Source of the DNA: Mustelus asterias
Lineage: Eukaryota
Length of the DNA: 64,000 nt
Direction of reading: 5' to 3'
Assembly (NCBI RefSeq): GCF_964213995.1
Contig: NC_135815.1
Coordinates: forward strand, 2,294,001-2,358,000
In this document: positions 131 through 52,358 of the stretch, piece by piece
Layout of the letters: each line of letters opens with the position of its first letter
Numbering within the stretch: position 1 is the stretch's first letter
Program-made: the position numbers and the translations under genes
The notes under the pieces: generated by a model
The model's input: the letters and a program-made list of their open reading frames with translations, nothing else
Databases searched by the model: none
What the model was told of the DNA's origin: nothing

Positions 131-131
131 C

Positions 132-1328: not shown

Positions 1329-1367
1329 GTTTATGAATCAATAGCTTCGCTCAGCTTCCCAGTTTAA
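1329..1367 (+). CDS. Candidate terminal exon of an upstream gene (VYESIASLSFPV*)
   Basis: Polypyrimidine acceptor ttctcaatgttcttctgtag| followed by a phase-0 13-codon ORF with a YESI tyrosine motif. No partner exons in the window. Confidence 0.25.
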   Translation, partial: VYESIASLSFPV

Positions 1368-1869: not shown

Positions 1870-1978
1870 GTGATTTGGTGATTTGATGATTTGATGATCT
1901 CATGAGTTGGTGATTTATTCATTTGGTGATTTGTTGATTTGGTGATTCAGTGATTTAGTGATTAGGTGATTTGGTATT
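1870..1978. repeat. 8-bp tandem repeat (TGATTTGG)n
   Basis: About 13 degenerate units visible. Confidence 0.85.
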
Positions 1979-15950: not shown

Positions 15951-15954
15951 CATT

Positions 15955-16650: not shown

Positions 16651-17200
16651 CCTTCATTGTTCTGAATGTTTTGTGCATTCAGATACAAAGCTTTTTAATT
16701 TGTTCTACTGGTAAATTTACCGAATCTTTTATAATTCCTTGGTGCATTAAGACATTCACCCGTTCTGTCCCTCTCTTTTATTGTCTGGTAACCATCGGCC
16801 ACATCGCTAACCAGCACTCTTACATCCTCCTTCAATTTGGGTTTTCTAATTTCCCCGACAACTGAACGCTCGCCGCACCCCCTATTCAGTTTAAAGCCCT
16901 ATCTACTGCCTTAGTAATGCAATTTGCTAGGACTCTGATCCCAGCATGATTCAGATGAAGACCATCCCATGGGAACAGGTCCCTTCTTCCCAGTTACCCC
17001 CACTCCCATACCCACCATGTTGAAGATGGCAGCAGGAAAGATCCTGCATTCAGGGAGTGGAGGGAAGAGACACCACTGACCCTAATCTGACCCCCCGGAC
17101 CCATTCCCTGGAGAGAGGCCTCAGTTTTCAGAGACCCAAAAGGCTGTGGTTCTGTTGATCTGTGGGGAGGTCTGGCCCCTTTAAATGTCTGACTGTCTCC

Positions 17201-18869: not shown

Positions 18870-19200
18870 CTCTTCTAATGTTGCAGACATTCCCCATTCT
18901 CATTCCCACAGCTGCTTCAGATTGTGAGAAACACAAATAGTTCAGAAAAGTTAATTCCATGGACTGCAGTGTTTCTCGAAGGCAGTTCACCACCACCTTC
19001 TCCAGGGACCGTTAGGGATGGGTAATTAATGCTGGTCTAGCCAGTGACACCCACATCCCATGAATGAATTAAAACAATAACTGGGAGGAGGAGCTTTGTC
19101 TGAGAGAGCTGTTCCACAGTGTGAGGACAACATTGTATTCCATTGTTATATCAACACATCTGTAATGCTGAGGTCAGCACACTGTAATCCCCAGGATATA

Positions 19201-22200: not shown

Positions 22201-22257
22201 CATCTAGATCGTTAATATATAAAGAGAACAGCTGTGGCCCCAACACTGAACCCTGCG
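19201..22257 (-). mobile_element. 5'-truncated CR1 (-) with a nested CR1 (+)
   Basis: Flanked by a GGATATA direct repeat (19194-19200, 22258-22264). The empty site is present in the paralog at about 61762-61768. Confidence 0.85.
19548..21594 (+). mobile_element. Young 5'-truncated CR1; uninterrupted 649-aa ORF2 RT portion (19562-21511)
   Basis: Open frame with [32 protein letters not shown]; (ttctatg)n tail. Confidence 0.93.
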
Positions 22258-22500
22258 GGATATAGAGCAGTAACAAACTAACACAGCAAGATCAACCTTG
22301 GAACCTGCTCCCTCCCTTTAAAACTCTTCCTGTGCCCTTCCTTTAACACAGAAACCCGACTGCCTGGACTGTCCCTTTAAATACTCACGGGAATTTGAAA
22401 CCTTCAGCTCAGAATTTAACTCGCTGATTTCTTTCACTCATTGATTTCTTTCATTCACTGATTTATTTCACTCACTGATTTGTTTTTCCTCTTTTTAAAG

Positions 22501-22845
22501 GTGCGAATGTTCCAGTCCTTACCCAGTCTCCGAGTGTGGAACGTGTCACAGAGGGTCAGACTGCACGGTTACAGTGCACCATGGGGAACGCTGCAGTGAC
22601 AGACACTGATGTTCACTGGTACCGGGAGCTACCTGGGAAAGATAGGGAGAGAGTTTTAACACAGGATATATGGAATAACATACACCGGAGCCGAGGTTTC
22701 ACTGAGCGTTTCCAGCCTTCCAGAGACACCTCCTACAACAGCTTCATTCTGACAATCACCATGGTGCAGCCCAGTGACACTGCCGTCTATTACTGCTCAG
22801 TGTGGGGAGGGGTCCGGGGTAAAGGAAGCCGGCTGAATGTAACCA
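22501..22845 (+). CDS. Exon V1: V-set Ig domain with fused J-like G strand
   Basis: Acceptor ttttcctctttttaaag|GT, donor ACC A|gtgagt. Translation ANVPVLTQSPSVERVTEGQTARLQC..VHWYRE..DTAVYYCSVWGGVRGKGSRLNVT has the B-strand Cys, C-strand Trp, DxAxYYC and GxG-x-x-L-x-V. Confidence 0.93.
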
Positions 22846-28800: not shown

Positions 28801-31800
28801 TTCGTGTGTTCCCAGCCTCCTGGCCTTGACAAATGCTTCCTTTTTCTCTTTGACTCGGTTCACAATATCTCTCGTTATACAAGGTTCCCAAAACTTGCCA
28901 TACTTATCCTTCATCCTTACAGGAATGTGTCGGTCCTGAGTCCCTATCAACTTCTACTTGAAATTCTCCCACATGCCAGATGTTGATTTGCCCTCAAACA
29001 TCTGCCCCCAATCTACATTCTTCAGTTCCTGCCTAATATTGTTGGAATTAGCCTTCCCCCAGTTTAGCACCTTCACTTGAGGACTATACTTTTTTTCATC
29101 CAACGTTAAAGCTTACTGAATTGTGGCCACTGTTTCTGAACTGCTCCCCTACTGAAACATCGACCACCTGGCTGGGCTCATTCCCCAACACCAGGTCCAG
29201 TATGGCCCCTTCCCTAGTTGGACTATCTACATATTGTTTCAAGAAGCCCTCTTGGATGCTCTGCCTCATCCACGCCCCTAGCACTAAGTGAGTCCCAGTC
29301 AATATAGGGGAAGTTAAAATCTCCCACCACAATTACCCTGTTTCTTTTACACCTTGCCAAATCTGCCTACATATCTGTTCCTCAATCTCCCGCTGGCTTT
29401 TGGTGGTCTATAGTAAATCCCCAACATTGTGACTACACCTTTCCTATTCCTGAGCTCTACCCACATTACCTCGCTGTATGAGCCCTCCGAGGTGTCCCCC
29501 AAGAGTACAGCTGTGATATTCTCCTTAACCAGTAGTGCAACTCCCCCACCCCTTTTACATCCACCTCTATGCTGCCTGAAACATCTGTACCTTGAATGTT
29601 AAGCTGCCAATCCTGTCCTCCCCTTAACCAAGTCTCTGTAATGGTAACAACATCATAGTTCCAAGTACTAATCCAAGCTCTAAATTCACCTGCCTTACCT
29701 GTTACACTTCTCACATTGAAACAAATGCACTTCAGTCCACCAGACCCTCTGATTAGCAATCCCACCCTGCCTGCTGTTTCTCTGAGTCTTACTGGTTCTA
29801 CTCTCTGGTTCTCCTTCAGTTAATTCACCTTTGTTTTAGATCCCACCCCCCTGCCAAACTAGTTTAAATCCTCCTGTGTGACACTAGCAAACCTCCCGGC
29901 TAGAATATTTATGCCTTTCCAGTTTAGATGCAACCTGTCCTTCTTGTACAGGTCCCACCTTCCCCTGAAGAGATCCCAATGGTCCAGATATCTGAAACCC
30001 TCCCTCCTACACCAGCTGTTTAGCCACGTGTTGAGCTGCACTATCTTCCTATTTCTAGCCTCACTGGCACGTGGAACAGGGAGTAATCCTGAGATTACAA
30101 CCATTGATTTCTTTAATTCACTGATTTCTTTATCCTATTGATTTCTTTAAAACTGATCCAGTCCCATCTTGTCCCCCGGACCCCCCCGCCACCCCCCCAC
30201 CAGCCCATTCGGGATGACTGCCACATTCCTACACTCTGTACCTGTGTTCTGCCATTTACACATTCCAGTCTCTGAATGGACACCATTATCACCATTCTCA
30301 GCCTTTATCATCACCATTTACATTCCTTTTCCCTATCTGTCTATGCTATTCTTATTTACAGCCCCCGCCGCCCCCAACAGTCTAAATCCTGTCTGATTTT
30401 ATTTGTCTTCAGCTCTGACGAAGGGTCATCCAGACTCGAAACATTGGCTCTATTCTCTCTCCACCAGATGCTGTCAGACCTGCTAATATTTTCTATCGTT
30501 TTGTGTTTTTGTTCCAGTCCTTACCCAGTCTCCGAGTGTGGAACGTGTCACAGAGGGTCAGACTGCACGGTTACAGTGCACCATGGGGAACGCTGCAGTG
30601 ACAGACACTGATGTTCACTGGCACCGGGAGCGACCTGGGAAAGATCGGGAGAGAGTTTTAACACATTATACAAGGAATAACATACACCGGAGTCCAGGTT
30701 TCACTGAGCGTTTCCAGCCTTCCACAGACACCTCCAATAACAGCTTCATTCTGACAATCACCGTGGTGCAGCCCAGTGACACTGCCGTCTATTACTGCTC
30801 AGTGTGGAGAGGAACCTGGGTCTGGGGGAAAGGAAGCCGGCTGAATGTAACCAGTGAGTAAAGTTTCATTCCAATAATTCACAGCAATAACCTCTTCCAG
30901 ATGAGTGAGTTGGAGGTGAGTTTGTGATGATGAGGAGCTGGGAGTGATGTCAAGTGATCTTACTGATGGATTCACTGTGGGGAAGAAGCTGAGCTCAGGT
31001 TCAGCAACTCCCCAAAGTTCCACATCTCGGGCTTCATCCTGACGGGGTGTCTGGGGGGATTAGTGCCGTGAGGCTGTTCACTAAGCTGCAGAAGAAGCTT
31101 TCTCTTCGCCGAACCCTCATGTCGGGCAGGGATCCGGAGGGAGAGGAAAGAGCCTTGGGATGGATGGAGGAGGTGGAGAGACACAGCTGAGTGACGGTGG
31201 AGATGGAGATGTTGAGCAGGTTTCTGAGGGTGAAATGATGAGGAGGAGGAAGCCACGGATGGTGCCTTGGGGACACAGCAGAGATGATCATTCAGACACT
31301 GGGGGAGACACCAGTGGTGCTGATATAATATTAATGATGTGAGCAGCAGGAGGGGCAGTGTGGGAGAGCGGTGCCAGGAGCTGGAATGTGCATCAGAAAC
31401 TTTCAAACAGGAATGTGTGCTCAGTGGTGTAGAAAGGAGAGCAGAGGTGAAAGATTCTGAGGAGGGATAGACAGTGGACATCACAATCACACAGATATCA
31501 CTCATCATCTTTATCTGTGAAGTTGTGGTTGGAGTGAATTCTGATTGCAGGGTCAGGAACAGGGAGTGGGCAGGAGGGGGGTCTCGGGATGTGGTGGTGC
31601 AGTGATATTGTCACTGGACTAGTAATCCAGAAACCCAGGGTAATGCTCTGGGGACTTGTGTTCGAATCCCACCACGGCAGATGGTGAAGATTGAATTCAG
31701 TAAAAATATGGAAGAAAACTTTTAATAGTGACCATGAAACCATCATTAATAGTTGCAAAAACCCATCTGATTCATTAATATCCCTCAGGGAAGGAAGTCT

Positions 31801-34800
31801 GCCGTCCTTACCTGGCCTGGTTCTACATGAGACTTCAGACCCCCAGATTACAGGAGGAAAGGGTCAGGAGGATGGATGGTCTTTATTGTGGAGACAAAGA
31901 AATCCATCTGTTCCTTAGAATTATGATGATACTGTGCCTTTAAGAAATGTATTTGTGTCATGTTTCTTGTGAGGGGACTATGTTACACTTCAGCTCTGAT
32001 TACGGTGCCGATTGTCTGCAACTGCCGAGAATGCAGATGAAAAGTTCCTCCGAATTATTGGGGTGTTTGTTTTACCTGAGTGAATGCATTTTTGCTATTT
32101 TTAGGGTTGCCCACTGGGATTTTCAGTTATATAGTTAAACTGTGTTATTAAATAAGGTTTGTTTTGATAAAGGCTTCCCAGTGGGTCAATAGAATCACAC
32201 CTGGAGTGAAACACCTTTAAGAGGTGTAGTTTGATCAAGTTTCTCTGCAGGATGTTTCTCGCATGCCCTGGAATTTTGTTGGCACCGTGTTGTCTGTGAC
32301 TGGTGTCCGTTATTGTTGCTGAAGCAGTATAATTGAAGCAATGTTTATTTTCATCTGGACTAAAGCAGTGTCCTCTGGTTTTAATGTGTGCCCTGGGATT
32401 GCTGAGTGGAGCTTGATTGGATAGGATTGACAGCTTCAGTCATGTGACTACAGACAGCTATTTTCCACAGAGCAATCGAGTTTTAGTTTTGATTTGAGCT
32501 GCTGCCAGAAGCTGATGGGAGCAGGCAGTGTTTCTGTCTCTCTCTCTCTCCTGAGACTTTCTCAACGTTCCAAGACTGGACAGCCTCCGAGATTTAATCC
32601 AACATTCAAAAGACCAATTCACATCGCTGTTCAAAATCTGCAAATGCAGCATCACATGAGCATACTTGCTTCAGTGCTAACTTCATCTGAAGCATGGTGT
32701 GTGTCTATGGGGTTGCTTTACATTGCATCAACAGAGGGAGCTAACTGTTAAGGATTAAACTGTTTCATCTTTAATTCTTGTTAGTGGTAAAAGTTATGCT
32801 AATTTTTATTATTATATGTTAACTGTTTTTAAATAACCTTTCTTTGATAAAAGCTTCCAAGTGGGTCACTTGAATCATACCTGGAGTAAAACACCTTAGA
32901 CTCACCCTAAAGCCAAAATCAAATGTGAAACTTAGGGTCTGGGCTAACTTCACAGAACACCTTGGAGTCTCTGGCCTGGGTTTTACCACACTTTATCCTC
33001 ACACTAATGCCAAAATTAAAAACAGTTCGGGTCCAACTAACTTCATTTGTACCTTGGAGTTTTTGCGATGATCCCTAACAGAATTGGTGTGTGAAATGAG
33101 CGTGGGGGGTGTGGGGAGGTGTGGGGAGGTGGGGGGAGGTGGCAGGGAGGGGGGTGGGTAGGGGGGTGCAGATGGTTAGTGGTGGAGAGGAGCAGTTTGA
33201 ATATGTTCCTCGTCTCCAGGTTTAACTGAGAGCCGGAAGAGGATTTGTTTGTGAAAAGGGAACATTGCAGCATTCTGTGTTTGAGGCACATTTAACCAGA
33301 AACATCTGGGCAGGTTACTCACCAGCTGTTCCAGCTTCTGCCCTGTGAGACCATGGGGGTGACAGTGAGCGTGGGGATGGAGAATTATTTGTGATAATTG
33401 GGGGAGAATGCTGAAGATAACTGAAACTTTAACCAGGGGATTGGCAGATATTAATATCATTCTTCACATAATGGAGTCTCAAATTGGGGAAGTCTTGCTG
33501 CAGTTTCACAGTGAATTAGTGGGACTGTAACTGGAGAATGGGTACAGCTTTAGCCCTCCTCCCTAAGGGGGGATATACTTGTAACAGAGGAAGTTCTGAG
33601 AAGGTACATTACACTGATTCCTGGGATGATGAGTTGTTTGATGAGGAAAGGTTGAGAAGATTGGTCTGAGACTCAGTGGAGTTTTGAAGAATGAGGTTAT
33701 CTTATTGGGATGTGTGTGATTCCTGAGGGGACTTGATGGAGTAGATACTGAGAGGGTGTTTCTCCTCTTGGAGGAATCTCAAACTAGGCAACGCTGTTTA
33801 AATTTAAGGAATTAAGATTGAAATGAGGAGTAATTTCTTCCCTCAGAGTCGTGAACCTTTGGAGTGCTGATTCCAGACAGCAGTGGGATTTGGGTCATTG
33901 AATATATTCAGGGCGGGGCTGCAGGAAGGGATTTCTTCTCCAGGAATCGAGAGTTTGGGGAAGCTGGCAAGAAAGCTGGGCTTAGTTAACAATCAGACCT
34001 CCCATCATTGTCTTGAATCATGGACAGGCTCGAGGGGCCAAATGGCCTCATACTGTTCCCATTTCTTATGTTCTTTTATGACCATGGGTGCAAGGCCAGT
34101 GTCAGGGAGGTTGGATGGTGAGGTGACAGAGTTCAAGTTGCCAGACCTTTGAAGGATATATATGAGTTAATGAGATGAATAATAGAATGAGGATGTAATG
34201 AGAAAGATCCCTGTTTGTGATCAATGTGAAGCAGCAGATATTGGAAAGGTCACACAGTTGCTTCCGTTATAGTCGGTGTGTGTGTAACATTAATCTACCC
34301 TGTCAGTGAGGAAACTGATAGGATTGGGTACAATGTTGTTCACACACCCACTCACCATCCTCGGTTTTACTTTCTGTTCTATAAGAAGCAATACTGGCTG
34401 GGTGTGAAATCTGAATTCCACCTATTCCTGTTTGTTTTCCACCCAAACATTCACATTCCAACTGTCCCCATTCACCCTTTATTCTCCCCACAGATGCTTC
34501 CAAAAACCTCTGCGTATTTCAAGAATTTCCAGAGTCATTTTGTTCAGATTTCCAGAATCGACATTATTTTATATTTTATATCCACAGGCCAAGCTGGGAT
34601 TGGGGAAATGTTTCTGCCACCGTTCAGTGGTTTTGGGAATGGGAATATGGCAGTTACGATGTCCTGGGAGGAAAGGAATATGATTTTTCCCAATATTACT
34701 ATGGGATACGGTGAAGCAGGTTTCGGGGGCTGTGTGTGTGTTTGTGTGTGTGCAACTAATTTAATTGAACTGAAGACAGTTAGACTGAACAGTTTAACTC

Positions 34801-37800
34801 ATCAAAAGGGTTCGGTATAAACGCAAGTTTTTGGAATGGAGATGATCAAAGCTGAGAGAGGATAAGTACGGGGGCGATTCTCCCATTGCAAACCGCAACT
34901 TTTCTGACGGGTCGGGTGGGGAGATGCGCGTGTCGGCCATTTAGCGGGTTCCCCGCAAACATTTACGACCCGCGCGCATCTCCCAACTGGACAATAATGG
35001 TGCCGCTGGAACCACGCAGAAAACCGGCGGGAAGAGAGATAAGTGATTGAAATCTGATTTTAATGTATATATTAAACCAAAGGTGATCCAAGGTGAACTA
35101 TCAAGATGGGTACAGAACTGGCTTGGCCATAGAAGACAGAGGGTAGCAGTGGAGGGGTCTTTTTCTGATTGGGGTTCGTGACTAGTGGTGTTCCGTAGGG
35201 CTCTGTACTGGGACCTCTGCTGTTTGTGATATATATAAATGATTTGGAAGAAGATGTAGCTGGTGTGATCAGTAAGTTTGCGGACGACACAAAGATTGCT
35301 GGAGTTGCGGATAGTGATGAACATTGTCAGAGAATGCAGCAGGATATAGATAGGCTGGAAAGTTGGGCGGAGAAATGGCAGATAGAATTTAATCCAGATA
35401 AATGCAAAGTGATGCATTTTGATAGATCTAATAGATGGGGGAGCTATACAATAAATGGCAGAACCATCAGGAGCATAGACACACAGAGGGATGTGGGTGT
35501 GCAAGTCCACAGATCCTTAAAGGTGGCAGCCCCGATAAAAAGGTGGTGAAGAAGGCATATGGCATGCTTGCCTTTATTGGACAGGGAATAGAGTATAAAA
35601 GTTGGCATATGATGTTGCGGTTAGATAGAACGTTGGTTAAGCCACATTTGGAATACTGCGTCCAGTTCTGGCCGCCACACTACCAGAAGGACGTGGAGGT
35701 TTTGGAGAGAGTGCAGAAAAGGTTTACCAGGATGTTGCCTGGTATGGAGGGTATTAGCTATGAGGTGAGATTGAGTAAACTAGGGTTGTTCTCCCTGGAA
35801 AGACGGAGGTTGAGGGGCAACCTAATAGAAGTTGATAAAATTATGAAGGGCATAGGTAGGGTGAACAGCTGGAAGCTTTTTCCCAGGTCAGAAATGACAA
35901 ACACAAGGGGTCACAAGTTCAAGGTGAGGGGGGCAAGGTTCAATACAGATATGCGGGGGACGTATTTTACACAGAGGGTGGTGGGGGCCTGGAATGCACT
36001 ACCAAGCAAGGTGGTTGAGGCAGACGCGCTCGGATCATTTAAGACTTATCTAGATAGCCACATGAGCAGACTGGGAATAGAGGGATACAAACGGATGGTC
36101 TAGTTAGGAACACATGATCGGTGCAGGCTTGGAGGGCCGAAGGTCCTGTTCCTGAGCTGTATTGTTCTTTGTTTCTTTGTTTGTTTCTTTGTATTTTAAA
36201 TCTAGTTTGCATCTCCCATCCCGCCAGGAGGATGTCATTCGGCGGGGTTTAGAGTAGCTCCCCTTGTTCGGGGAACCAGTGGGAGACCCCGCCGGAGTGA
36301 AGGGGTGGCAATTGGGTCCCCCCCAGGGGTCTGGGCAAAAGGGGGGTGGTGCCCCCTGGGCATGGGCACGTTGGCACTACCCAGCAGGCATCATGCAATG
36401 TCAAGGGGGTGGGGTCCATTGTGGGAGGGGCCAAGGCAGTGACTGGTGGGGTTGGGGGGTTCCACTGCCACTCTGCATTGAGATTGGTCTGGGCTGGAGG
36501 GAGGCCAGCGATTGGGGCGGGCTGAGAGGGGTGGACTGCTCAGGGGGCCCTGCCTCCCTGGGGGGGGCTGCCTCCTGGGATGGGGGGTCTGACCCCAGGG
36601 GGGGGTTTCAGCAGGGGGGTGGGGTCTGCCTCCTGTCAGGAGGTCAGGGGGGAGTCTGCTGGGGTGAGTGGAGTGGGGGGATCACCACTGCTGTGTACGG
36701 GGGGCTGGGCATTGGGGTGCTCCAGGACGGGGTCGGGGGGGGGGGGTGGTAAGGGCTGGCCCAGGAATGGTCCTCGGGGCCGTGGAGGGGGCTGGAGGGG
36801 CAGCACTGTGGGGGTCCCGGGCTGGCCAGTGATCGATCTGGCCAGCAAATGGCGCATGCACAGAGTTCCAGAACTGCCAGACCCCGCCGCGAATAGGCCC
36901 CGCCTCCGGATTTTTAATAATATTAACAATTGGGACATCTGCATTGCACAGAGTGCAGAGATTCGGGCCTGAAAAAAGAATCATGATCGAAACCAGTTTT
37001 CTCGACAATTCAGCACTTTTGGGAGAATTGCCCTCTTCATTTCTGGGAATGGGAGTTTTTATTCCTGAGTTCCGGACACATAGTTTCTTGCAATAAAATA
37101 TAAATTGCAAATGGTTGTAGTAGCTTGATCAATTTTCCCTTTGTGATTTGGTCAGCCTGGTTATTACCACCTGCCATGTCTTAATGTGGATGGAAATTTG
37201 CATGAGGAGATACGAAGTTTGCTTGTGCTCACATGGGGAATTTCAGAGATAAATAACAGGGTATTTACAACTGGCAAAGATCAGAAATGAATAAAACAAT
37301 GTTATTAAATTTATTCTGATCAAAGGAATAGTGGCCATAAAGACAACACGCACAAGGCCGCTCTCTGCACACAAAAGGACTATGTTCCAGCTGTGCGCCT
37401 TTTTCCAAAATAAATGGGAAATTTGGGAGTCTCTAATTCAGACAACTCTCTCCATGGCAACAAGTCAGCCAATCTGAGTTGACTTTCTAACCAATTGTCC
37501 CATTTTTCTCCCGTTGAGTAAATTGTGATTGTTTGAAATTTAATATTCTTGTGTTTTTCCTGATGAGTGTAAAATGAAAAGCTTCAGCAACACGTCTCTC
37601 TATTCGATGAGATTCAGGTCCTAAACCACGAAGGGACGGATCATTTATAATTCCTCACACAAATCGATATGACTTCATTTGAATCACCCAGCCCATTGGT
37701 TCAGTCTCAGCATCTCTTTAACAACAAACTTTCCCTTTAAACGTTTTGTAACCTCCAGACTGGTTTTTAAATTGTTGATATTTTCCTCTTTTTAAAGGTG

Positions 37801-40800
37801 CGAATGTTCCAGTCCTTACCCAGTCTCCGAGTGTGGAACGTGTCACAGAGGGTCAGACTGCACGGTTACAGTGCACCATGGGGAACGCTGCAGTGACAGA
37901 CACTGATGTTCACTGGCACCGGGAGCTACCTGGGAAAGATTGGGAGAGAATTTTAACACTGGATACAGGCAATAACATACACCGGAGCCCAGGTTTCACT
38001 GAGCGTTTCCAGCCTTCCAGAGACACCTCCAATAACAGCTTCATTCTGACAATCACCGTGGTGCAGCCCAGTGACACTGCTGTCTATTACTGCTCAGTGT
38101 GGGGAGATATCAGTGGGAACGGGACACAGCTGAATGTAACCAGTAAGTCCAGTTTACATAACAATCTCCTGAAGTAATCACCACTTGTGACTGTGTGGGA
38201 GATGAGGATGTGAGAAATATCACAAACCCCTGTGGTAATGGGAACACATTAGAAAAATAGACTGGGTGATCTCATGCGCTCTTATTAAAGAATAAAAATT
38301 GTGCATCGCTCCTGATTTCTCAGTCTTCAATTCTTTGACATTTTCTCTGTTTCTCTGTTTCTGTTTGTTTCTAATCTTTCTCCCTCTCCTTTGTTTACTC
38401 AGCTTTCTGTCAGCGTGCTGTCTCCAGCTGTTTCTGTTTTATATTCATTCTTGGTGGGCATTACTGGTTAGGGTCCACCACTAGTTGTCCTTGAGAAGGT
38501 GGTGATGAAACAGCCTCTTGAACTGTTGCAGTCCATGTGGTGTAGGTGCATCCACAGTGCTGTCAGGATTGGAAATTCCAGGATTCTGACCCAGCGACAG
38601 TGAAGGAACAGCGATATATTTCCAAGTCAGGATGGCGAGTGACTCGGCGAGAAGCCTCCAGGTGGTGGTGTTCCCCATGTGCCTGCTGCCCTTGTCCTTT
38701 TAGAGTCATAGTCATCGAGTCGTAGAGTGCAGAAATGGTAGAGGTTATGGGTTTGGAAGGTTCTGTATTTGGAGCCTTGGTGAGTTCCTGCAGTGCATCT
38801 TGTAGATGGTACACACGGCTGTCACTGTGTGTCCATGGTGGTGGGAATGAATGTTTAATGTGATGGGTGAGGTCCCAATCAAGCACATTGGCTTTGTTCT
38901 GGATGGTGTCGAGCTTCTTGAGTGTTGTTGGAGCTGTAGTCATCCAGACCAGTGGAGAGTATTCCATCACACTGCTGACTTGTGCCTTGCAGGTGGTGGA
39001 CAGGCTTTGGGGAGTCAGGAGGTGAGTTACCCTCTGCAGGATTCCCAGCCTCTGACCTGCTCTTGTAGCCATAGCTTTTATATGGCTGGCCCAGTTCAGT
39101 TTTTGAACAATTCTAACCCCAGGATGTTGACAGTGGGGATTCAGTGATGGAAATGCCATTGAATGTCAAGGGGCGATGGTTAGATCCTGTCTTGTTGGAA
39201 ATGTTCATTGCCTGACACTAATGTTACCCACCACATATCAGCCCAAGTCTGAATGTTGTCCAGGTCCTGCTGTGTGCAGGAACAGCCTGCTTCAGCAATG
39301 GAGGAGTAATGAATGGTCCAATCATTAATGAACATCCTCACTTCTGACCTTATGATGGAAGGAAGGTTATTGATGAAGCAGCTGAAGATGGTTGGGCCTC
39401 GGAAGCTATCCTGAGGCACTCCTGCAGTGATGTCCTGGAGCTGAGATGATTGACCTCCACCCATCTTCCTTTGCTCCGGGTATGACTGCAGGTGGAGAGG
39501 AAAAGGTGAGGAAAGCAGTGAGAAGAGTGGGATTCAGGAAATTAGGGGTTTCTGGGAATATGATGTCGTACATGAGAAATGAGCAGGGAACCAGTAGAGG
39601 CTGGGATCAGGGAGGAAGAATGGGTGAGGTTTCGAGCTTGGCACACTGCTGGGTGCCAGGAATAGGGAGAGTCATAGGGATGAGGAACGTACGTTAGCCG
39701 AGGCAACAATGTCCACATCTTGGGAAAGACAATGCTTCAGGTTGGGATCCGTAGAAGGAGCACAGCCAAATTGCCTCTTTAGAGTTGGGAACCATGTGTC
39801 AGGCCATTTCATCTCAAAAAACAACTGTCTGGCTATCTGTTCAATATGTTACTGTTGATAGAGTTGCCAGATGCCCTTGTTATGAATCTTGGTTGAGTTC
39901 CAGATTGACTATGGACCGAGTCAATGAAATAATGTTAACATAGTTTGAAGCAAAGTGCTCCTAGTTATTTGACTGACATTTCTAAGGTTGCGAGAAGTTT
40001 CTTTCTTTGTGGTTTTTCAATGCCTGTTTGTTTATTTGAACGCAGTTAAGAGATGTTAAAAGGCTTAAAACTTTACCCACTGATGCTACGAATGGCAATG
40101 GTTATTTGCCTCTTTGCTCACTGTGTCAATTTCAGAAACATTTCAATGAATTTCCAGCTGTGCTCATGGCACATGGCTTCTGTACATCGTGGATACTTGG
40201 AGAGTGGGTGTGGAGTATGCATGGGAAAATGGAAAGGGCATGAGGTTGCAGTAAGCAGGGAAGGATATAATGAGTCATGGAGGAGGCCTGAGGGTTATCA
40301 GGAAGGGCGGGATCTTAGAGTGAAGTTCCACAATTGGCAGAATGTAACAGGACAGGTCGATATGGTGGGATAAGTTTGAAATTCCCTGTGTCTCTTTTTA
40401 CCAATTCCCAACAATCCCGGAAGGGGAAAATCCAGGCCAGATTGATAGGATGGGGTAAAGAAGAGGATTAGCAGCAGTAAATCAGTCCGTGTGCGGTCAC
40501 GCTGCAATTATTATACAGGAAATTTCAAACTTTATACCTTTACTTTCACCTTTCATTCATCTTTTTAAACAATAATTTGAGTTCTTCCAATAATCAGCTG
40601 TGAAGATTGTGAAGTTTATCCGTTTGATAGTTTGTTTTCTGTGGTTGGGAATGTGCACTGAATGGATAATATCAGCAAATTCTAGAACATTCAGCCCTTT
40701 TGTCACATCATTCCCTCCCTCGTTGCAAACAACTATTTCCATGTTGGAAGAATGAGAAAATTGGGGTGGCACGATGGCCCAATGATTAGCATTGCTGCCT

Positions 40801-43800
40801 CACAGAGCCACAGACATGGGTTCGATTCCCAGCTTGGGTCACTGTCTGTGTGGAGTCTGCACGTTCTCCCCGTTTCTGCATGGGTTTCCTCCAGGTGCTC
40901 CGGTTTCCTCCTACAGTCTGAAAGATGTGCTGGTTAGGGTGCATTGACCCGAACAGGCACCTAAGTGTGGCAACGAGGGGATTTTCACAGTAACTTCACT
41001 GCAGTGTTAATGTGAGCCTACTTGTGACTAATAAATACATTTTACTTTAGAATACTCTGCAGATCATTATTGTAACCAGAAGAAGATTTCTAAAATGTTG
41101 CATTTCAAGTTCTATGATTTTTCTTTCTCAATATTAACAGCTCCATTGTCTGACCCAGTCCTCATGCAGTATCCAACAGTCAGCAAGGTGCCAGAGGGTC
41201 AGGCTGTCGACTTACAATGTGCCATGTACAATGCCAGTGTGATTGACACTGATGTCCACTGGCGTTACCAGCGAGCTGGCTACCACAGTGAGTGGCTGAT
41301 CAGCCAGTTTGTGAATGGCACCATTACCAAGTCCCGGGATTCCCACCACCGTTTTCAGCCTTCCCGGAATGTCAGCAGCAACAGCTACATTCTGACCATT
41401 GTGAATGTGACCCTCAAAGATACAGCTGTGTACAGATGCAGTGTGTGGAGCTACATTCATGGAGCAGGGACCCAGCTCAATGTCACTGGTAAGTCAATGC
41501 TGAGTGACTGGCGTGTGCATGGAATGGAAGGGAGCATACAGAATGGCAGAGTGCTCATCCAGGCCTTCGTTCCAAAGATTGAATTAGGTTGGACTGGTTA
41601 GGAAGTCAGGCCTGGAGGGACCTAAGTGAGAAACTGAATCACAGAATTGCACAGAAGACCATTCGTCCCATCATGTTTTCACCCTCGCTCTGAATGCTCA
41701 ACTCGCCGAGTGCCATTCCCCTGCAACCCTGAACATTTCTCCACTTTCGATAACAGTCTAATTCCCTTTTGAATGCTTCAATTGAACCGGTCTCCACCAC
41801 ACTCTCAGACAGTGCATTCCAGATCCTAACCACTCGCTGTGTGAATCTGTCTCCACCACACTCTCAGACAGTGCATTCCAGATCCTAACCACTCGCTGTG
41901 TGAATCTGTCTCCACCACACTCTCAGACAGTGCATTCCAGATCCTAACCACTCGCTGTGTGAATCTGTCTCCACCACACTCTCAGACAGTGCATTCCAGA
42001 TCCTAACCACTTGGTGTGTGAATCTGTCTCCACCACACTCTCAGACAGTGCATTCCAGATCCTAACCACTCGCTGTGTGAACCGGTCTCCACCACACTCT
42101 CAGACAGTGCATTCCAGATCCTAACCACTCGCTGTGTGAATCTGTCTCCACCACACTCTCAGACAGTGCATTCCAGATCCTAACCACTCGCTGTGTGAAT
42201 CTGTCTCCACCACACTCTCAGACAGTGCATTCCAGATCCTAACGTCTCGCTGTGTGAAAAGGTTTTTTCTTCATTTCTCTTTGGTAAATTACTTTATTTT
42301 GATGCCCTGTGGTTCTCGATCCTTTCACAATGGGAACAGTTTCTCCTGATCTACTCTGTCAGACCTCCAATGGTTTTGAATACGTGTCAAATTTCCTCTC
42401 AGCCTTCTCTCCTCCATGGAAATCAGTCCTAATTTCTACAATACTTCTCCAAAGGCCAGGATACTGTGTGCTTTATTAACTGCTCTCTCCACCTGTCCTG
42501 TCAGCTTCAATGAATTATGCATACACACACTCAACTGTCTCTGTTTCTGCACCCCCTTTAGATTTGTAACCCCTATTTACATTGTCTCTTTATGTTCTTC
42601 CCACCGACATGTATCTCCTCACATTTCTCCGTGTTGAACTTTATCTGCCACCTGTCTGCCCACTCCAACATTTTGTCTCTGTCCTTTTGAATTTCCAAAC
42701 GATATTCCTCACAGTTTCCAATACTCTCAAGTTTCAGATCACCCACAAATGTTGAAATTGTGTTCTGTACACTAAGGTCTCGGTCATTCATGTATCTCAG
42801 GAAAAGCAAGATCCCAGCACTCAGCCCTGGGGAACTCCACTACAAATGATGGGCTGATCTTGGGCTTGAACTCCATTCGCTGCCTGCTCACCATGTCTCT
42901 GAATTCCCCGACAGAGCAACATCTCTGTATTCCAGCCTTAAATGTATTTAACAATGGAGCATCCACATCCCTCTGGGTGCAGCACTGGAGAGATGGTTGC
43001 TGAGTTTGTGAGGTTTGGTGAGTGTGGACAGGCAGAGAAAGCGGATCATTCCTCATCCTCCCAACTTCACACAAACAAGCGTTTGGAAGCTCTGGGATTG
43101 TTTTGAATGTTCTGTGATTCTTTGGTATTGGTGCAAACTGCTACTGGATCACGGGTCTCTGCTCTGCTGTATGACTGATCTCTGGGATTGTTTCAGATCC
43201 ATAAAAAAAGGCAACAATGTTAGAGGAAGAAGCCATTATGTTGCACTGGCCTTTCATTCCAGGCTGTTAACTTGCCACGTATCAAAGGGACATGTTTACC
43301 CGAATGTGCTCAGCAGAAACTGATGGAAACAGGTTCTGTCTGATTTTATTTCCATTCAGGTCGATGTACATTACTCAAACTGAAGCTGTAGTGTGTGTAA
43401 CATTCTGATATTTTACAGAAGAATCATCCTCCAATAATCCCTGGATTTCAGATCCCGTTGTGTTAAGCCTGGCTATCATTCTGCCCTTGGTTGTCTTGTT
43501 CTGCATTGCTCTGCTCACAGGTTATCTTGTAAAAAAGAGGTTCTGTTCAGCAAAGAACTCCACACCAAGGTAAATACGATTCATCTTGTGTCTGCTGCTG
43601 TAACTGGACAGGGGCACTATTTTATAACTTGCTGCTTTTAGTGAGGAGTAACTTTTCCCTTGTCACGTACAGTTCATGCGGAGTGACCTGCTACTGATGA
43701 GAGCCACACATGTCCAGATGCTCAACTGGTGCCAGTCATCTCCAACTGTCACGGCATCACACTTACTCCAGCACTGACCAACAGGCACCTAACCTGCTGC

Positions 43801-46800
43801 TGAGAGTCAGGAAGGTTTTAACAGTTAAAGTACGAAACATCACCCTCAGGATATAAGTGCTGGATAATTCCCCACCTAGCCCACCGAATGAACTAGATCA
43901 GAGCGCTGGTTTCATGCCTGTGTCTCGCTCGCTGCACAGTCCCTCATGATGCTCAGACCAAGTGAGAACAGTTAGAATGGACACTCTGTGTAAGCAGCCT
44001 ACCTCAGCCATTACCCTCCCCACAAGGAAACAATCCAATCATATTTACCCACCCTGTTCCCACATCTCTTCAGTTTCCTTTTCCATCACCTCCCCCTCGA
44101 ATCTAATCTCAATGCTGACATTATTTCTGCCTCACCCTCCCTTACGTGGCCAGGAGTTCCAACCTGTCTGGAAGAGACTGAGACACAGGTTCTGTCCCCT
44201 TGTCCCCAATCCAAACTCCCTGTGTGTCTTCTCGCTGCTCCCCGGGCTTTATTTAGGAAATGATTCAGTTGATCTTGCTCATCCGTGAAATCTTCCATAA
44301 AAAACTAATATGGGAAATCCATGTTGAAAAATCTAAACTGCATCTCCACCCAGAGTGTGAATATTACAGCGCTGTTCTGTGGTAAAGCCGCAATGAAGCT
44401 AATGTGTGGCATTTCTTTAGGGTTCCTGATGGAGACCAGAACCCTGTGTACGAAACAGTGGATAGTAAGTAAACTCATTCAATCATTATTGCAAAGCTTG
44501 GCAGGAATTACTCTCAATCCCAGATGTCCCTTTGATGCTGATAGTTTTGTGATGTAATTAACTTGCGAATAATTTGACCAATTCATTGTCTGATTGACAG
44601 AATTTACTGTTAAAGGTTGTAAATCTACATCCTACAGAATGAAGATGGCAGGAGGCTGCCCCCAGCCTTGTAGCTGCACTGTGAAACACCCCCTCAGTGT
44701 GGCAATGCTGCAGCCAGTGGTCCCAAAGAGATAGAAACTTCCAGAAAGCCCAAGGAACCAGCTTGTAGTGATCACGCCTTTGTAGATCGAGCACATTGTC
44801 CGTTCCCAGAGGGATTCCTCGGGATAGAGAAGGTTCAGATCTGACCCAGTAAAGAGTTTAAAGATGGTGAGGTTTTGATGGAGAGAAAACCTATTCCCTC
44901 TGGCGAACGGATCAATAACCAGCGGTCATCGATTTCAAATCACTGGGTAAAGATCTCGAGGGCAGATGGGGAGAAATGAGAATTGTCGGGATGTGGAATA
45001 CTCGAGCTGGGAATGTGCTGGAAGCTGATTCCAGAAATAATCAGAAAAGAGAGTTGGACAAGTGCTGGAGGATGAGGAATTTCCAGGATAGTGGATAAAA
45101 AGCAGGAATGTGGGATGAAGCCCAATGGCTGTATTAATGACCTAGTACAGGCCGAATGGGGCGAATGGCCTCCTCCTGTTGTGTGAGATTCTGATTTGGA
45201 TGATGAGGTTTCGAAGACAGTGCAGCTGATGGAGAATAATCCACACGTCCCCCATTAGCTTCACTCTGAGAAAACTGCCCAAGGTGACACTGGGATTTTT
45301 CATTCGCTCTCATTCCAAGTTGAAAAAGCTCCATCTTTCCGTGGATCTATTCAGAAGTAACATCGTTGTGTTTCCTTTCAGATAAAACCCAGAGCAGCAA
45401 TCAAGAAGCAGCTTCTTCTGCCTTGGTAAGGAAATGCCGTACAGCTGTTGTGTTTTACTGTATTTTTCATACTTCAGCTTTGCAAACTGCTTCCAAAATA
45501 GGCAGCACATTGTATTCCACAGGAGCACGACCCATATTACTGTAAGAATGACAAATCATTGCTGTGTTACAGACAGGAGAGTGATAGCAACCTGCGCTGA
45601 GTTCTCCACACCACCTGTCTCAGCAGAAGCACTTTTGAATTCTTTTTGAAGAATGTGGCGGCACCTTTTCCCAATCCTTTGTTTTGTGTGAACCAATGTA
45701 CGAAGAAACTGCAGGAAACTCAAGTTATCATTAACACAGAAAGTTAACTTAAACCTGGAGAGGAATATTCACAACTTCCCACTCCACCACACACACACAC
45801 CCTCNNNNNNNNNNNNNNNNNNNNNNNNNNNNNNNNNNNNNNNNNNNNNNNNNNNNNNNNNNNNNNNNNNNNNNNNNNNNNNNNNNNNNNNNNNNNNNNN
45901 NNNNNNNNNNNNNNNNNNNNNNNNNNNNNNNNNNNNNNNNNNNNNNNNNNNNNNNNNNNNNNNNNNNNNNNNNNNNNNNNNNNNNNNNNNNNNNNNNNNC
46001 ACGCACACCCGCACACGCACGCCTGCACACCTTCACACACGCACACCCTCACACACGCACACCCTCACACGCACACCCTCACACGCACACACACATCCAC
46101 ACACACACCCTCACACACACACCCTCACACACACACCCTCACACACACACCCTCACACACACACACCCTCACTCACACACACACCGCGCACACATCCATG
46201 CACATACACCCCTTCACATACACAAAAACCCATACACACGCGCACTCACATACATGCACAATCACACGCGCACTCACATGCGCACTCACACAGACGCACA
46301 CGCAGATACATGGACACGCATACGGACACACCCACAGACACTGTGGCCACACTTGGAATACTGTGCACAGTTCTGGGCTCCCTATTATCGAAAGGATATT
46401 ATTAAACTAGAAAGAGTGCAGAAAAGGTTTACTAGGATGCTACCGGGACTTGATGGATTGAGTTATAAGGAGAGGCTGGATAGACTGGGACTTTTCTTCC
46501 TGGCGTGTAGGAGGCTGAGGGGTGACCTTATCGAGGTCTATAAAATAATGAGGGGCATAGATGAGCTAGATTGTCAACATCTTTTCCCAAAGGTAGGGGA
46601 GTCTAAAACTAGAGGGCATAGGTTTAAGGTGAGAGGGAGAGATACAAAAGGGTCCAGAGGGGAAAATATTTCCATTCAGAGGGTGGTGAGTGTCTGGAAC
46701 AAGCTGCCGGAGGTAGTAGTAGAGGCGGATACAATTTTGTCTTTTGAAAAGCATTTAGATAGTTACATGGGTAAGATGAGCTTGCGGAGCGCCGCTCCTT

Positions 46801-49800: not shown

Positions 49801-52358
49801 TGTTTTTTAAAGAGCTCAGTTTATTCTCTATTGTCTCATTAAATTCTTCATCTTGACTTCATTTTGTCAATTTTTGCAACTTTTTTCCAATTTGTTGTCA
49901 GTGATTTCATCTTGTTGTTTTAAACACTGTGCATCCCCCAGCTGTCTCAGCCCCTACACATCTTCAGACTGTCTCTGCGTAAGGTAGGACTCCACGCCGT
50001 GGGGTGATGACCCACTCTCTGTCCCAATTAGTCCCTCAAGTCAGGTGACCCTCTTCTCCTGTGTTGCCCTTAAAGGGACAGTCACCACATGTACTTTACC
50101 TCTTGCTGAATGAAAGTGTTTTAGAAATAATCAGATTCATGGAAACATAAATGTCTCCAGATTATAATTCCTGACCCTTTGTAATCAGGATTTAATATTT
50201 TCCCATTTTTACTATAGCTCCTTGACCTAATCTTTACAGTTTACATCTTGTTTCAGAAATTGAAAGATTCTCCAGCAGACTTGGACCCAACGTACATGGT
50301 AAATATCTCTCCCCACAATGCACTGGGATATGTCTGAGGATCAACATTCACCACATGCTAAAGTTTCCGCTTTCTGGGATCTCATTGGCCCCAAGTATTC
50401 TATTGACAAGTCTATCCACGAATCACAAGCAATGGGAATGGGTTAGGTGACGAAACAAATATCCAACCATGTTGGACATCCTACTGGATTCTCATGTCAT
50501 TGGCTTAGTGTGCTGGTGAATTACCATCTCCACTTTCCAATCTCATTGCGGTCCAATCCCAGCCTCACACCATCACCCCCTTCCCCCCGCAAGCCACAGG
50601 GACAAACCTCATTATCTCCCCCTCGAGCACCAGAGACTCTCTGCTCTCATTCCCAATCCTCTGTCTCCATGATCACTGCCAACCTCACAAAGCTGTGGCC
50701 ACCCACTGTGTCCCACAATTATCAGAGAGAGTTAAAACCCTCCATTAATATCCCTCCTCTCACAACCTCCAAACACCTCAAATCCCTTTACACCGAGTGA
50801 AGAGCTTTGGACGTGCAGTCATTGTTGTAGTTTGGGATAGAAAGCAACCAATTGGAGCACAGCAAGAACACTGGGAGAGCTCTGCTGCTTTTAGAGTATT
50901 AAATCATAAATATGGGGTGAGGATTCACTGCGCCCCCTCCAGCCTGCTCCACTCGTCAACACAACCATGGCCAATCTTCTCCCTCACATCCACTGTCCCA
51001 GCCATTCCTCAAACCACTTAATTCCCAGAGAGACCCAAAATCTGTCTATAGCAGCCTTAAATTCACTCAACGAAGGAGCACCCACACCCTCTGGGGTAGC
51101 GAGTTCCAAAGATTCACAACCCTTTGAGTGAAGACATTTCTTCAATGTCGTGCTGTGAGATTCAGCACATCCACCTGACAGAGGGCCTCGGTCTAACACC
51201 TCGTCCAAAAGACTGCACTTCTGACACTACAGCACTCCCTCAGTACTGCACAGAAAAGGCAGCCTGGGTTATAGAATCAAACCTCGAGCCTGGGGTTTGA
51301 AGCCACAATCAGCCTCAAATTCAAACATGCTTCCACTGAGCCAACACGTAGGAATTGGGGAAGCTGCGAACATCCATCCAAATACAGTCAAATAAATTAC
51401 TTTCACCTTGAAGCGAGTGTTGTTAGAATGTAAAAACATTCCAAATAAGCCTCTCATTGTGCACATGTTACGAGATCACAATTTCTAACATGTCTCTATT
51501 TTCTGTTAGGCGTTACAGCAAAGACCTGAGTCGATATACAGTGACCTTAAAGGTATGTTTCTATTCCATTTCACCAAGGTTCAGGAAAAGCAGCTGATTT
51601 AGAACTATAGAATGCCTACAGTGCAGAAAGAGGCCATTCAGCCCATCGAGTTGGCACGACTCTCTGAAAGAGTATCTCACCCAGGCCCTTCTCTCAGTCC
51701 TATCCCCATAATCCTGTGCGTTCCCATGGATAATCCACCTAACCTATACATCTTTGGAATCCATGGTGAAACTGATGCAAACTTTCACTCACAATGGACC
51801 CATAACAACAACACTGCATAGAATTGACAGAGAGCTGTGAGTCCAGTGTGGCAATGGACCATTATTAACCCCATGTGCTAACACACTGAATGCTGTGTGT
51901 GATATATAACAAATACACACGCGCATTTCCACACCTGGACCTGAATATAGACAAATAGACACACGTTCACAAATGTACATAGACACACAAACATACAGAA
52001 CCATCCACAAACACACATGTACTTACACACATACATTCAGTAACACGCACACACACATTTCACACCGTGATTCCCAATATGTGGAGTGGGAATACTGAAC
52101 AATTTCGCTTCCTACCCCCTCAGTGTTAAGACCAACTGTCGCCCCGACTCCCATTCCATCTGGGATCAACTCACTCAGCACAGGCTGGAGATAGAGTCTT
52201 GGAGTTTCTAGTCATTAATAATGGAATTACAACCTGGAGATCCTCATCAGAGGACCGGAAATGATCCTTTATTCTCACATTTGCTGCAGGATTAATTTTG
52301 GAAACTAATTGATTTTAATTTTGTTTGAACAGGCGATAAACAAACTCCCGATTCCTGA
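22501..52358 (+). CDS. Multi-exon IgSF receptor gene: 4 germline-joined VJ-type V domains, TM, cytoplasmic NPxY + ITAM (5'-partial, no intact leader exon found)
   Basis: Ten exons with AG/GT boundaries. Intron phases 1,1,1,1,1,2,1,0,0,1 join into a stop-free frame: 1724 nt plus 1 nt from an upstream exon = 574 aa plus TGA at 52356-58. Inclusion of V1 and V2 in the same transcript is inferred from phase compatibility only. Confidence 0.8.
23159..30100. mobile_element. Cluster of nested CR1 fragments in both orientations (intron V1-V2)
   Basis: RT ORFs 23508-24827(+), 25073-25579(-), 25871-26667(-), 26683-27642(+), 27484-30104(-). Host intron remnants at about 23340-23396 and 25588-25607. Confidence 0.88.
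28124..28340. mobile_element. Palindromic non-autonomous Penelope derivative with two inverted hammerhead motifs
   Basis: Arms match the ends of 6211-7440; centre caggtgag-a-ctcacctg; TSD about gacctcccc(t)gta. Confidence 0.8.
30160..30515 (+). mobile_element. Penelope-type 3'/pseudo-LTR fragment abutting exon V2
   Basis: Hammerhead-like ctgacga-agggtc..gactc-gaaa (30415-30441) and a T-rich tail that replaces the native acceptor. Confidence 0.6.
30518..30853 (+). CDS. Exon V2: VJ-type V domain, paralog of V1 with a replaced splice acceptor
   Basis: About 95% identical to V1 by eye. Acceptor ttgtgtttttgttccag|TC keeps phase 1; donor A|gtgagt; ends YYCSVWRGTWVWGKGSRLNVT. Confidence 0.88.
31590..31850 (+). 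mobile_element. tRNA-derived SINE
   Basis: A-box-like gtggtgcagtg and B-box gttcgaatccc; body matches the fragment at about 55925-56098. Confidence 0.7.
31922..33080 (+). mobile_element. Solo LTR with a related LTR nested at about 32220-32990
   Basis: 4-bp TSD GAAT (31918-21, 33081-84); ends CCCTAACA; inner copy flanked by CTTTA direct repeats. Confidence 0.75.
33450..34075 (+). mobile_element. Degenerate CR1 3' fragment
   Basis: Decayed RT C-terminus and ggctcgaggggccaaatggcct tail. Confidence 0.65.
34333..34861 (+). pseudogene. Decayed leader exon (34333-34380) plus VJ-type V exon (34494-34861)
   Basis: MLFTHPLTILGFTFCS is followed by 'ataaga' (donor GT>AT). A strong acceptor ctttattctccccacag precedes MLPKTSA.. 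Frameshifted V-like motifs: IILY(F), TVQWFW, SRFRG, IELKTVRLNS, and NGD-(G)SKLRE G|ataagt (second GT>AT donor). Confidence 0.5.
34871..37033. mobile_element. Non-autonomous TIR DNA transposon (possibly PIF/Harbinger-like) with a CR1 insert at about 35075-36190
   Basis: TIRs gggcgattctccca / tgggagaattgccc; GC-rich interior; CR1 RT ORFs 35226-36103. Confidence 0.65.
37798..38142 (+). CDS. Exon V3: VJ-type V domain
   Basis: Acceptor ttttcctctttttaaag|GT, donor A|gtaagt; ends DTAVYYCSVWGDISGNGTQLNVT. Confidence 0.93.
38450..39460 (-). mobile_element. L2-clade LINE 3' fragment
   Basis: AGVPQDS..GPTIF..KLNWASHI..MEYSPLVW..LKKLDTIQ; related to 53572-54390. Confidence 0.75.
40766..41050 (+). mobile_element. 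V-SINE (HE1-like)
   Basis: tRNA-like head plus the V-domain core gtgtggagtctgcacgttctccccg..gggtttcctcc..ggtttcctcc. Confidence 0.8.
41141..41488 (+). CDS. Exon V4: divergent membrane-proximal VJ-type V domain
   Basis: Acceptor ttctttctcaatattaacag|CT, donor ACT G|gtaagt. Translation PLSDPVLMQYP..GQAVDLQC..DTDVHW..RFQPSR..DTAVYRCSVWSYIHGAGTQLNVT is homologous to V1-3. Confidence 0.92.
41788..42257. repeat. 59-bp tandem repeat, about 8 copies, inside a degenerate CR1 (-) (about 41640-42850)
   Basis: Unit tctccaccacactctcagacagtgcattccagatcctaaccactcgctgtgtgaatctg. Confidence 0.9.
43419..43569 (+). CDS. Transmembrane exon
   Basis: attttacag|AA...CCA AG|gtaaat. Encodes (E)ESSSNNPWISDPVVLSLAIILPLVVLFCIALLTGYLVKKRFCSAKNSTP: a hydrophobic, uncharged span followed by a KKR stop-transfer. 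Phase 1 in, phase 2 out. Confidence 0.88.
44421..44464 (+). CDS. Cytoplasmic exon 1 (NPVYETV)
   Basis: catttctttag|G...GAT A|gtaagt; (R)VPDGDQNPVYETVD. Phase 2 to 1 is exactly what is needed to link the TM exon to the next exon. Confidence 0.82.
45382..45425 (+). CDS. Cytoplasmic exon 2
   Basis: gtttcctttcag|AT...TTG|gtaagg; (N)KTQSSNQEAASSAL; phase 1 to 0. Confidence 0.78.
45785..46340. repeat. CA-rich simple repeat containing an assembly gap (N 45805-45999)
   Basis: Direct inspection. Confidence 0.95.
46340..47075 (+). mobile_element. CR1 3' fragment with a Penelope mini-element at 46779-46943
   Basis: PHLEYCAQFW.. ORF; insert flanked by TSD ggtaagatg; hammerhead core at 46823-46851. Confidence 0.8.
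47822..50089 (-). mobile_element. Deleted LTR retroelement (two LTR copies) with a CR1 insert at about 48422-49540
   Basis: About 155-bp direct repeats (47903-48057 vs 49935-50089); polypurine tract (aaatagggggga on -) adjacent to the 3' LTR. The CR1 holds a Penelope fragment at 48996-49061 (TSD ttatataacctt). Confidence 0.7.
50257..50298 (+). CDS. Cytoplasmic exon 3 (first part of ITAM)
   Basis: catcttgtttcag|AAA...TAC ATG|gtaaat; KLKDSPADLDPTYM; phase 0 to 0. Confidence 0.85.
51150..51350 (-). mobile_element. DeuSINE-like fragment
   Basis: Reverse complement gives tgcagtactgagggagtgctg..tgtcaga..gtctttt..gaggccc, resembling the Deu domain. Confidence 0.55.
51510..51552 (+). CDS. Cytoplasmic exon 4 (second part of ITAM)
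   Basis: tattttctgttag|GCG...AAA G|gtatgt; ALQQRPESIYSDLK; completes YMAL-x7-YSDL. Confidence 0.85.
52333..52358 (+). CDS. Terminal coding exon
   Basis: ttttgtttgaacag|GC GAT AAA CAA ACT CCC GAT TCC TGA = (G)DKQTPDS*; phase 1. Confidence 0.7.

Follow-up and report, generated by a model that had tools for sequence, protein, structure and literature searches.

Two exons of a shark receptor gene encode a split ITAM, probably on the activating half of a paired set with a CEACAM-type tail

The window analysed here is a stretch of 64,000 nucleotides (nt) from the shark Mustelus asterias (contig NC_135815.1; G000:C15:2294001-2358000 in our numbering, G000 being this genome), and plain positions below refer to it. 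Apart from its leader exon, the window holds a receptor gene on the + strand with two short exons, 50257..50298 and 51510..51552, which together encode a tyrosine-based activation motif of immunoreceptors (ITAM). We consider it probable that these exons are the ITAM of a receptor with four VJ-type domains, likely the activating half of a paired set, and that a CEACAM-type tail was grafted on an inhibitory gene, the two genes being kept matched by recombination.

The split ITAM and its gene

An earlier note on this DNA had described an ITAM that is interrupted by an intron and exists in the spliced message only, and this description holds. Both exons carry AG and GT at their ends and the first one closes with TAC ATG. 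When joined, they read DxxYxxL-x7-YxxL, a canonical ITAM, whose first YxxL is split by a phase-0 GT-AG intron of 1,211 nt (50299..51509, + strand) directly after the residue following the tyrosine (Y+1), and the motif is present only after splicing. As a control, all 119 open stretches of 30-60 nt between AG and GT on the + strand of the window were considered as pseudo-exons; one of them ends in [DE]xxYx in phase 0 and one starts with x[LI]x6-8Yxx[LI], and these two are the ITAM exons, in the right order. The tyrosines of an ITAM are phosphorylated by Src kinases and then bound by Syk or ZAP70, and the inhibitory counterpart of the motif (ITIM) recruits SHP-1/2.

From the first V exon (22501) to the stop codon at 52358, ten exons form one stop-free spliced frame of 573 codons, with frame and splice sites intact throughout. 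Four V-set exons are followed by a transmembrane (TM) exon and five tail exons, and the leader exon lies outside the window at G000:C15:2274604, 19 kb upstream. In all four V exons (22501, 30518, 37798, 41141) a J-like G strand is part of the same exon as the V domain. In detail, V1 (22501..22845, Pfam V-set E 1e-16) is a V-set domain with such a germline-joined strand, V2 (30518..30853) is of VJ type, uses a downstream acceptor and matches the first domain of the protein P0012 discussed below, and V3 (37798..38142) as well as the membrane-proximal V4 (41141..41488) are VJ-type exons. Rearranging receptors have V and J in segments apart from each other and, in addition, a C1 domain; this layout is not seen in this gene, where V and J share one open exon four times before the TM exon.

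In the TM exon (43419..43569), which is of a type that inhibitory family members carry, the 21-residue TM segment contains no charged residue. Next come cytoplasmic exon 1 (44421..44464, 44 nt, phase 2-1, one tyrosine) and cytoplasmic exon 2 (45382..45425, 44 nt, phase 1-0), the latter without any difference from the twin gene described below. The ITAM exons follow as exon 3 (42 nt, phase 0-0, first ITAM half, ending at Y+1) and exon 4 (43 nt, phase 0-1, remainder of the ITAM), and the last coding exon (52333..52358), which matches the end of P0067, runs up to the stop codon and is followed by the 3' untranslated region.

Gene models of relatives (P0067, P0063, P0062 and P0004) span the same junctions as the ITAM exons, and models from which one exon is missing or in which the 42-nt exon occurs twice (P0065, P0074, P0076) break at the same points. 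Further copies of the ITAM exons were found neither by a DNA search of the genome nor in the stretches of the cluster that were fetched. As a side observation, one catshark model contains the 42-nt phase 0-0 exon twice, which adds a third YxxL, and another skips it (P0074, P0076, P0065); in the window gene, skipping of exon 4 would change the reading frame of the last exon (52333 onward), so that only one YxxI would be left.

An inhibitory twin and the point of the tail swap

A twin gene lies about 120 kb from the window gene and is approximately 99% identical to it from the leader to position 45454. Window positions 1..45454 (+ strand) correspond to G000:C15:2418461-2463466 with 97-99.5% identity, and the whole shared tract, which starts outside the window at the leader (C15:2274604), is about 65 kb long. 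Identity stops abruptly 29 bases past the donor of cytoplasmic exon 2, and in the alignment with the twin these last common bases (45426..45454) map the tail swap to within a few bases. The tail of the twin consists of one exon (C15:2464433-2464552) that contains an ITIM and a tyrosine-based switch motif of immunoreceptors (ITSM). P0012 was placed in this cluster, with a last exon fully identical to that of the twin, and because it maps into this cluster it is a paralogue and not outside evidence.

The two linked genes thus have near-identical ectodomains and opposite signalling motifs (ITAM versus ITIM plus ITSM), as is expected of paired receptors. An ITIM exon inside the window, as alternative splicing of one gene would require, was not found, and a search of the interval 45454-50257 for leftovers of a TM of the activating type, or of the additional tail exon that other sharks have, gave nothing. 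In the shared exons 15 of 1,268 bases differ between the two genes, by which 11 residues are changed; the single difference in tail exon 1 (44421-44464) gives E at Y+1 in the window gene and A in the twin. The V1 exon is located in a 1.44-kb segment (22066-23532) that has no counterpart in the twin and whose flanks look derived from a long interspersed nuclear element (LINE), and as this segment is missing from the twin, the domain number is four in the window gene and three in the twin.

Between both genes there is, in addition, an inverted partial third copy (G000:C15:2366455-2389057, minus strand) comprising a leader and one V exon, in which no TM was found, and a second inhibitory gene faces the twin (G000:C15:2478705-2506355, minus strand).

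A receptor family of sharks and rays

Two protein searches, one of them listing 120 of 135 matches, yielded a family set of 125 proteins, isoforms counted. All named proteins among those listed come from sharks or rays, under unrelated automatic names, and two are unnamed. An ITAM is found in the tails of 24 and ITIM plus ITSM in 50, another 24 have other tails, and in 27 our filter detected no TM. Based on the TM and juxtamembrane sequence, three classes can be distinguished, one activating, in which a YEN motif precedes the ITAM, and two inhibitory. The window gene is a hybrid of these, in which ITAM exons follow a TM exon and first tail exons that belong to an inhibitory class, and the same layout is present in gene models of five other shark species, namely catshark and carpet sharks (P0062, P0004, P0014, P0099, P0100). 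An E at Y+1 of tail exon 1 was also observed in the hybrids P0004, P0014, P0099 and P0100, not in P0062, and also in the inhibitory P0095.

This recurrence bears on the suspicion that the hybrid gene is an assembly artefact, i.e. a mis-join or a tandem placement of two haplotypes, or else a dead copy. Tandem tracts of 99% identity are indeed error-prone, a run of N (45805-45999) separates the swap point from the ITAM exons, and RNA support is absent in the runs examined. However, the swap point is set in continuous sequence, 350 nt ahead of the N run, the same hybrid layout would have to be explained in all five other species, and all ten exons have kept their frame and splice sites, which makes an artefact or a dead copy very improbable.

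In a tree of the TM and its flanks, calculated from 22 chosen rows, the window gene pairs with P0012 (100/99) and the catshark ITAM protein P0062 with the catshark ITIM protein P0066 (99/96), and a single ITAM clade is rejected on this tree (approximately unbiased test, p-AU 0.0003). The ITAM exons give a different grouping. Hybrids are identical to the window in 14 of 21-22 non-motif residues; the activating class reaches 7-11 of 22, CD247 4-5 of 22 and FCER1G 1 of 17. Across species, hybrids share 13-20 of 21-22 non-motif ITAM residues with each other, more than with the activating class, and within one species the hybrid P0004 and the activating P0044 have 9 of 21 in common. We infer that one old swap with repeated re-copying of the 5' part would fit both the TM tree and the pattern of the ITAM exons.

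The sequence of events could have been as follows. Before the split of sharks and rays, the family would have acquired a CEACAM-type tail, made up of a YxN exon and a split ITAM, either through exon shuffling or by inheritance from a common ancestral receptor. An inhibitory member would then, in galeomorph sharks, have received the ITAM exons behind its TM exon and its first tail exons, and since that time the 5' part may have been re-copied between the members of the pair, in the present case as a tract of about 65 kb. By analogy with known ITAM biology, a ligand that clusters the receptor would lead to phosphorylation of both tyrosines by a Src-family kinase, binding of Syk or ZAP70 and activation without an adaptor chain, and the twin, if it binds the same ligand, would be expected from known ITIM biology to recruit SHP-1/2. 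The ligand could most likely be a microbial mimic of the ligand of the inhibitory receptor, comparable to the CEACAM1/CEACAM3 situation. The model for this analogy are the CEACAM pairs, in which the activating copy counters microbes that engage the inhibitory one (PMC5112662, PMC2110893); here and below, statements taken from papers cited by PMC number refer to those parts of the texts that were available.

Origin of the ITAM exons

The earlier note had gone further and had taken the intron position as a sign of shared ancestry with, or shuffling from, the classical ITAM adaptors. The position itself is indeed the same: in this genome, two ITAMs of CD247 (C17) and the one of FCER1G (C275) are each split after Y+1 in phase 0, and a third CD247 ITAM was searched for in this genome without success. 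A classical ITAM is described as always split within the first tyrosine module (PMC4536121), and in dogfish CD79a the last two introns are in phase 0 (PMC4034164). The Y+1 split is, however, also characteristic of CEACAM ITAMs (PMC2832619, PMC2110893, PMC5112662), it is present in three of the four CEACAM-like TM loci examined in this genome, and in the family paralogue P0064 a 42-nt exon ends at Y+1 and the following exon completes no ITAM. Since CEACAM-like genes and the non-ITAM P0064 share the split, the intron position singles out no donor, and the split does not stand as a sign of shuffling from an adaptor. All split ITAMs may have a very old common origin.

A profile built from nine family tails was run over 1.84 billion proteins (E up to 0.001). 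Of the 12 matches, six are family members and three are repeats; the others are chondrichthyan tails, and no adaptor is among the 12. The three chondrichthyan tails belong to a CEACAM1-like protein of a chimaera, a PSG22-like protein of the horn shark and an unnamed basking-shark protein with a CEACAM-like TM. Against PDB chains the profile gave no match at E up to 10, though full-length CD3 zeta and FcR gamma chains were included. With the TM exon of the basking-shark protein, CEACAM-like genes were located on C20 of this genome. In three of four TM loci there, an exon in phase 0-0 (42, 42 and 36 nt, respectively) ends in Y-M and is followed by an exon of 44 nt; two of the three have a YEN exon upstream, and at the third locus the second motif is degenerate. 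An intronless piece consisting of TM and tail of a CEACAM-like gene (G000:C3:100310678-100310884), which ends in a stop and is probably a retrocopy, was seen as well.

Outside the motif residues, mean identity is 0.51 within the family, 0.39 between the family and CEACAM-like tails, 0.41 among the latter and 0.15 between the family and adaptors. A reverse profile made from the three C20 ITAMs only scores 19.9 bits on the window and 7.2-31.5 bits on 15 relatives, versus 0.3, 0.3 and -0.5 bits on three adaptor ITAMs (CD247, FCER1G), and of 500 shuffles in which the four motif residues stayed fixed none reaches 19.9 bits. A family member from the bamboo shark and the chimaera CEACAM-like protein have 13 of 16 non-motif residues in common. 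Judged by these comparisons of sequence, the candidate donors would rank as family paralogues first, CEACAM-like tails second and CD247/FCER1G near background.

Direct shuffling of the ITAM exons from a classical adaptor gene (CD3, CD247, FCER1G, TYROBP or CD79) is therefore unlikely. The common split with CD247 and FCER1G and a weak likeness to CD247 ITAM1 (p 0.002-0.012) speak for it, and shark CD3, CD79 and DAP12 were outside the comparison. The same split in CEACAM ITAMs and in a non-ITAM paralogue, and the absence of adaptors from the profile and PDB matches, speak against it. The alignment with shark CD247 and FCER1G proposed in the earlier note accordingly agrees in the split position but not in the rest, as the non-motif sequence is near background, with CD247 ITAM1 as the one weak pair, and the exon sizes are unlike (FCER1G has 21 nt plus a terminal exon). 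Adaptors also have an acidic TM residue (PMC4536121), in contrast to the uncharged TM of the window gene. As to other ITAM genes of sharks (CD3, DAP10/12 and others), searches with Pfam PF16680, PF16681, PF07213 and PF02189 led to other Ig genes or to nothing. A CD3 stalk pattern gave 14 matches compared to seven in the control, by which no CD3 gene was located, and there is no CD3 gene within 100 kb upstream of both UBE4 loci.

About equally doubtful, if marginally less so, is convergence, by which SH2-domain preferences and a favoured intron site would have produced similar tails twice and the ITAM would have arisen within the family. The motif is short and functionally constrained, family and CEACAM-like genes are located on different chromosomes (C15 and C20), and the ectodomains share generic Ig likeness alone: the N plus IgC ectodomain of CEACAM type is not found in the window gene, V4 and P0135 match with 25.8 bits, and genome searches for the two groups list different loci. 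On the other hand, adaptor ITAMs are under the same SH2 constraints and yet score near 0. The likeness extends to the spacer and upstream residues, to the 42-nt exon with its Y-M end and, about 21 residues upstream, to a YEN motif, and it includes the 13 of 16 residues mentioned above. The tail exons are those of the CEACAM activating type except for the second exon, which is off by one base and in phase.

Several points weigh against our preferred reading of a CEACAM-type tail grafted on the inhibitory member of a pair. In 11 of the 15 exon differences between the twins a residue is altered, which is about the neutral expectation and no sign of selection. None of the 18 sequencing runs on record is registered as RNA, and the joint 50298-51510 is absent among the 15 of 34 joints listed (four runs, region 50150-52700), where repeats dominate; in one run from another organism, presumed to be RNA, contigs cover exon 3, the beginning of exon 4 and the final exon, which is not counted as evidence. 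The window and CD247 ITAM1 share 4 of 16 residues (p 0.002), as many as the window shares with each of two CEACAM-like genes, and the DNA of the second exon matches CD247 ITAM1 in 20 of 42 positions and CEACAM-like genes in 19-26 of 42. This exon has 43 nt and phase 1 in the window gene and 44 nt and phase 2 in CEACAM-like genes. Moreover, the compared stretch comprises 28 residues and the adaptor side three ITAMs (two of CD247, one of FCER1G; shark CD3, CD79, DAP12 and NFAM1 were not among them), the C20 genes were found via P0132, itself picked by the tail profile, and the label CEACAM-like goes back to automatic names, not to synteny.

A wider proposal, which we put forward tentatively and rate at somewhat less than even, is that a portable activating tail, consisting of a YxN exon and the split ITAM, passed between unrelated CEACAM-like and VJ ectodomains before the shark/ray split and was later grafted again on an inhibitory member, in an undescribed elasmobranch family of germline VJ paired receptors that signals without CD3 or CD79. 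If true, this family would be a living model of antigen-receptor-like signalling before adaptor chains split off.

Relation to known receptor systems

The closest known system are the CEACAM paired receptors of dog (CEACAM1/CEACAM28), marsupials and Xenopus, which likewise carry ITIM/ITSM versus ITAM on matched ectodomains (PMC2110893, PMC2832619, PMC5112662, PMC13278318). As far as these accounts go, the receptors have their own ITAM with a phase-0 split, recombination keeps the copies similar, and a YxN or other tyrosine motif stands upstream of the ITAM, as it does in the main activating class of the shark family. They differ by N and IgC domains in place of tandem disulfide-bearing VJ-type domains, and the dog tract measures 2.3 kb, with TM and tail travelling together, whereas the shark tract of about 65 kb includes the TM and two tail exons. 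Chondrichthyan CEACAMs as such are already on record (PMC4079198, PMC13278318). The ITAM adaptors (CD3, CD247, FCER1G, TYROBP, CD79; PMC4536121) resemble the window gene in the ITAM consensus and the intron after Y+1; unlike them, it has a large ectodomain and lacks the acidic TM residue, and its exon sizes and non-motif sequence (compared with CD247 and FCER1G) set it apart.

With the germline VJ receptors SIRP, NITR, NKp30, CD8, CD79, PRARP (PMC11599192) and UrIg/UrIg2 (PMC12227049) the window gene shares a V and J-like strand in one non-rearranging exon. It differs from them in that C1 and I domains are absent and that it is predicted to activate by its own ITAM rather than through a charged TM. 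Non-rearranging genes with VJ domains are thus known, and the available parts of these two papers make no mention of the present family. Skate MDIR (PMC3031540) is, by its description, likewise a V-type Ig receptor with a tyrosine-motif tail, of the CD300/TREM/pIgR-like kind.

Among the VJ receptors, SIRP-beta, NKp30 and most NITRs activate via a charged TM. Hagfish APAR form a paired antigen-receptor-like family and mammalian NFAM1 is a V-domain receptor with its own ITAM, both being, by description, V-type Ig receptors with tyrosine-motif tails like the one reported here. The Pfam NFAM1 Ig model gave weak partial matches, with E 0.16 for V2 of the window and E 5e-8 over 36 residues for P0004. 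In the ESM Atlas the V domains fell into generic V-set clusters and the tail reached only scores below 0.9. A description of the receptor family was not found in the literature covered, which is a weak negative as most subscription journals lay outside that coverage.

A split ITAM alone is textbook knowledge, and there are known paired receptors that carry a split ITAM of their own. The value of the present case is its setting, i.e. a conserved shark and ray family of antigen-receptor-like domains with both activating and inhibitory tails under arbitrary database names, together with a tail swap mapped this closely and evidence for signalling tails travelling between receptor families. It offers a testable receptor pair for shark innate immunity and a caution that the donor of an ITAM is not identifiable from intron position.

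Further observations on the cluster

An activating-class paralogue (G000:C15:2545461-2563300) consists of a leader, two V exons and a TM, followed by a tyrosine exon and, 1 kb further on, the last exon; in this 1 kb, which contains a tandem repeat, neither ITAM exon was found, so the ITAM has seemingly been lost. The gene of P0064, which has YxN only, lies at C15:1624209-1673629 and has a duplicated tail. A tandem array with a 59-nt unit occupies part of the V4-TM intron (41783-42258) and is longer in the twin. In the intron before the ITAM exons, a direct repeat of 158 nt (47901-48058 and 49933-50090) is 88% identical over a distance of 2 kb; it has no further copy in the cluster stretches fetched and is possibly the end of a mobile element. 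More distant V exons are located at G000:C23:1597993-1598319, which resembles an Ig light-chain V segment, and at C373:216948-217244, which is another germline-joined VJ exon.

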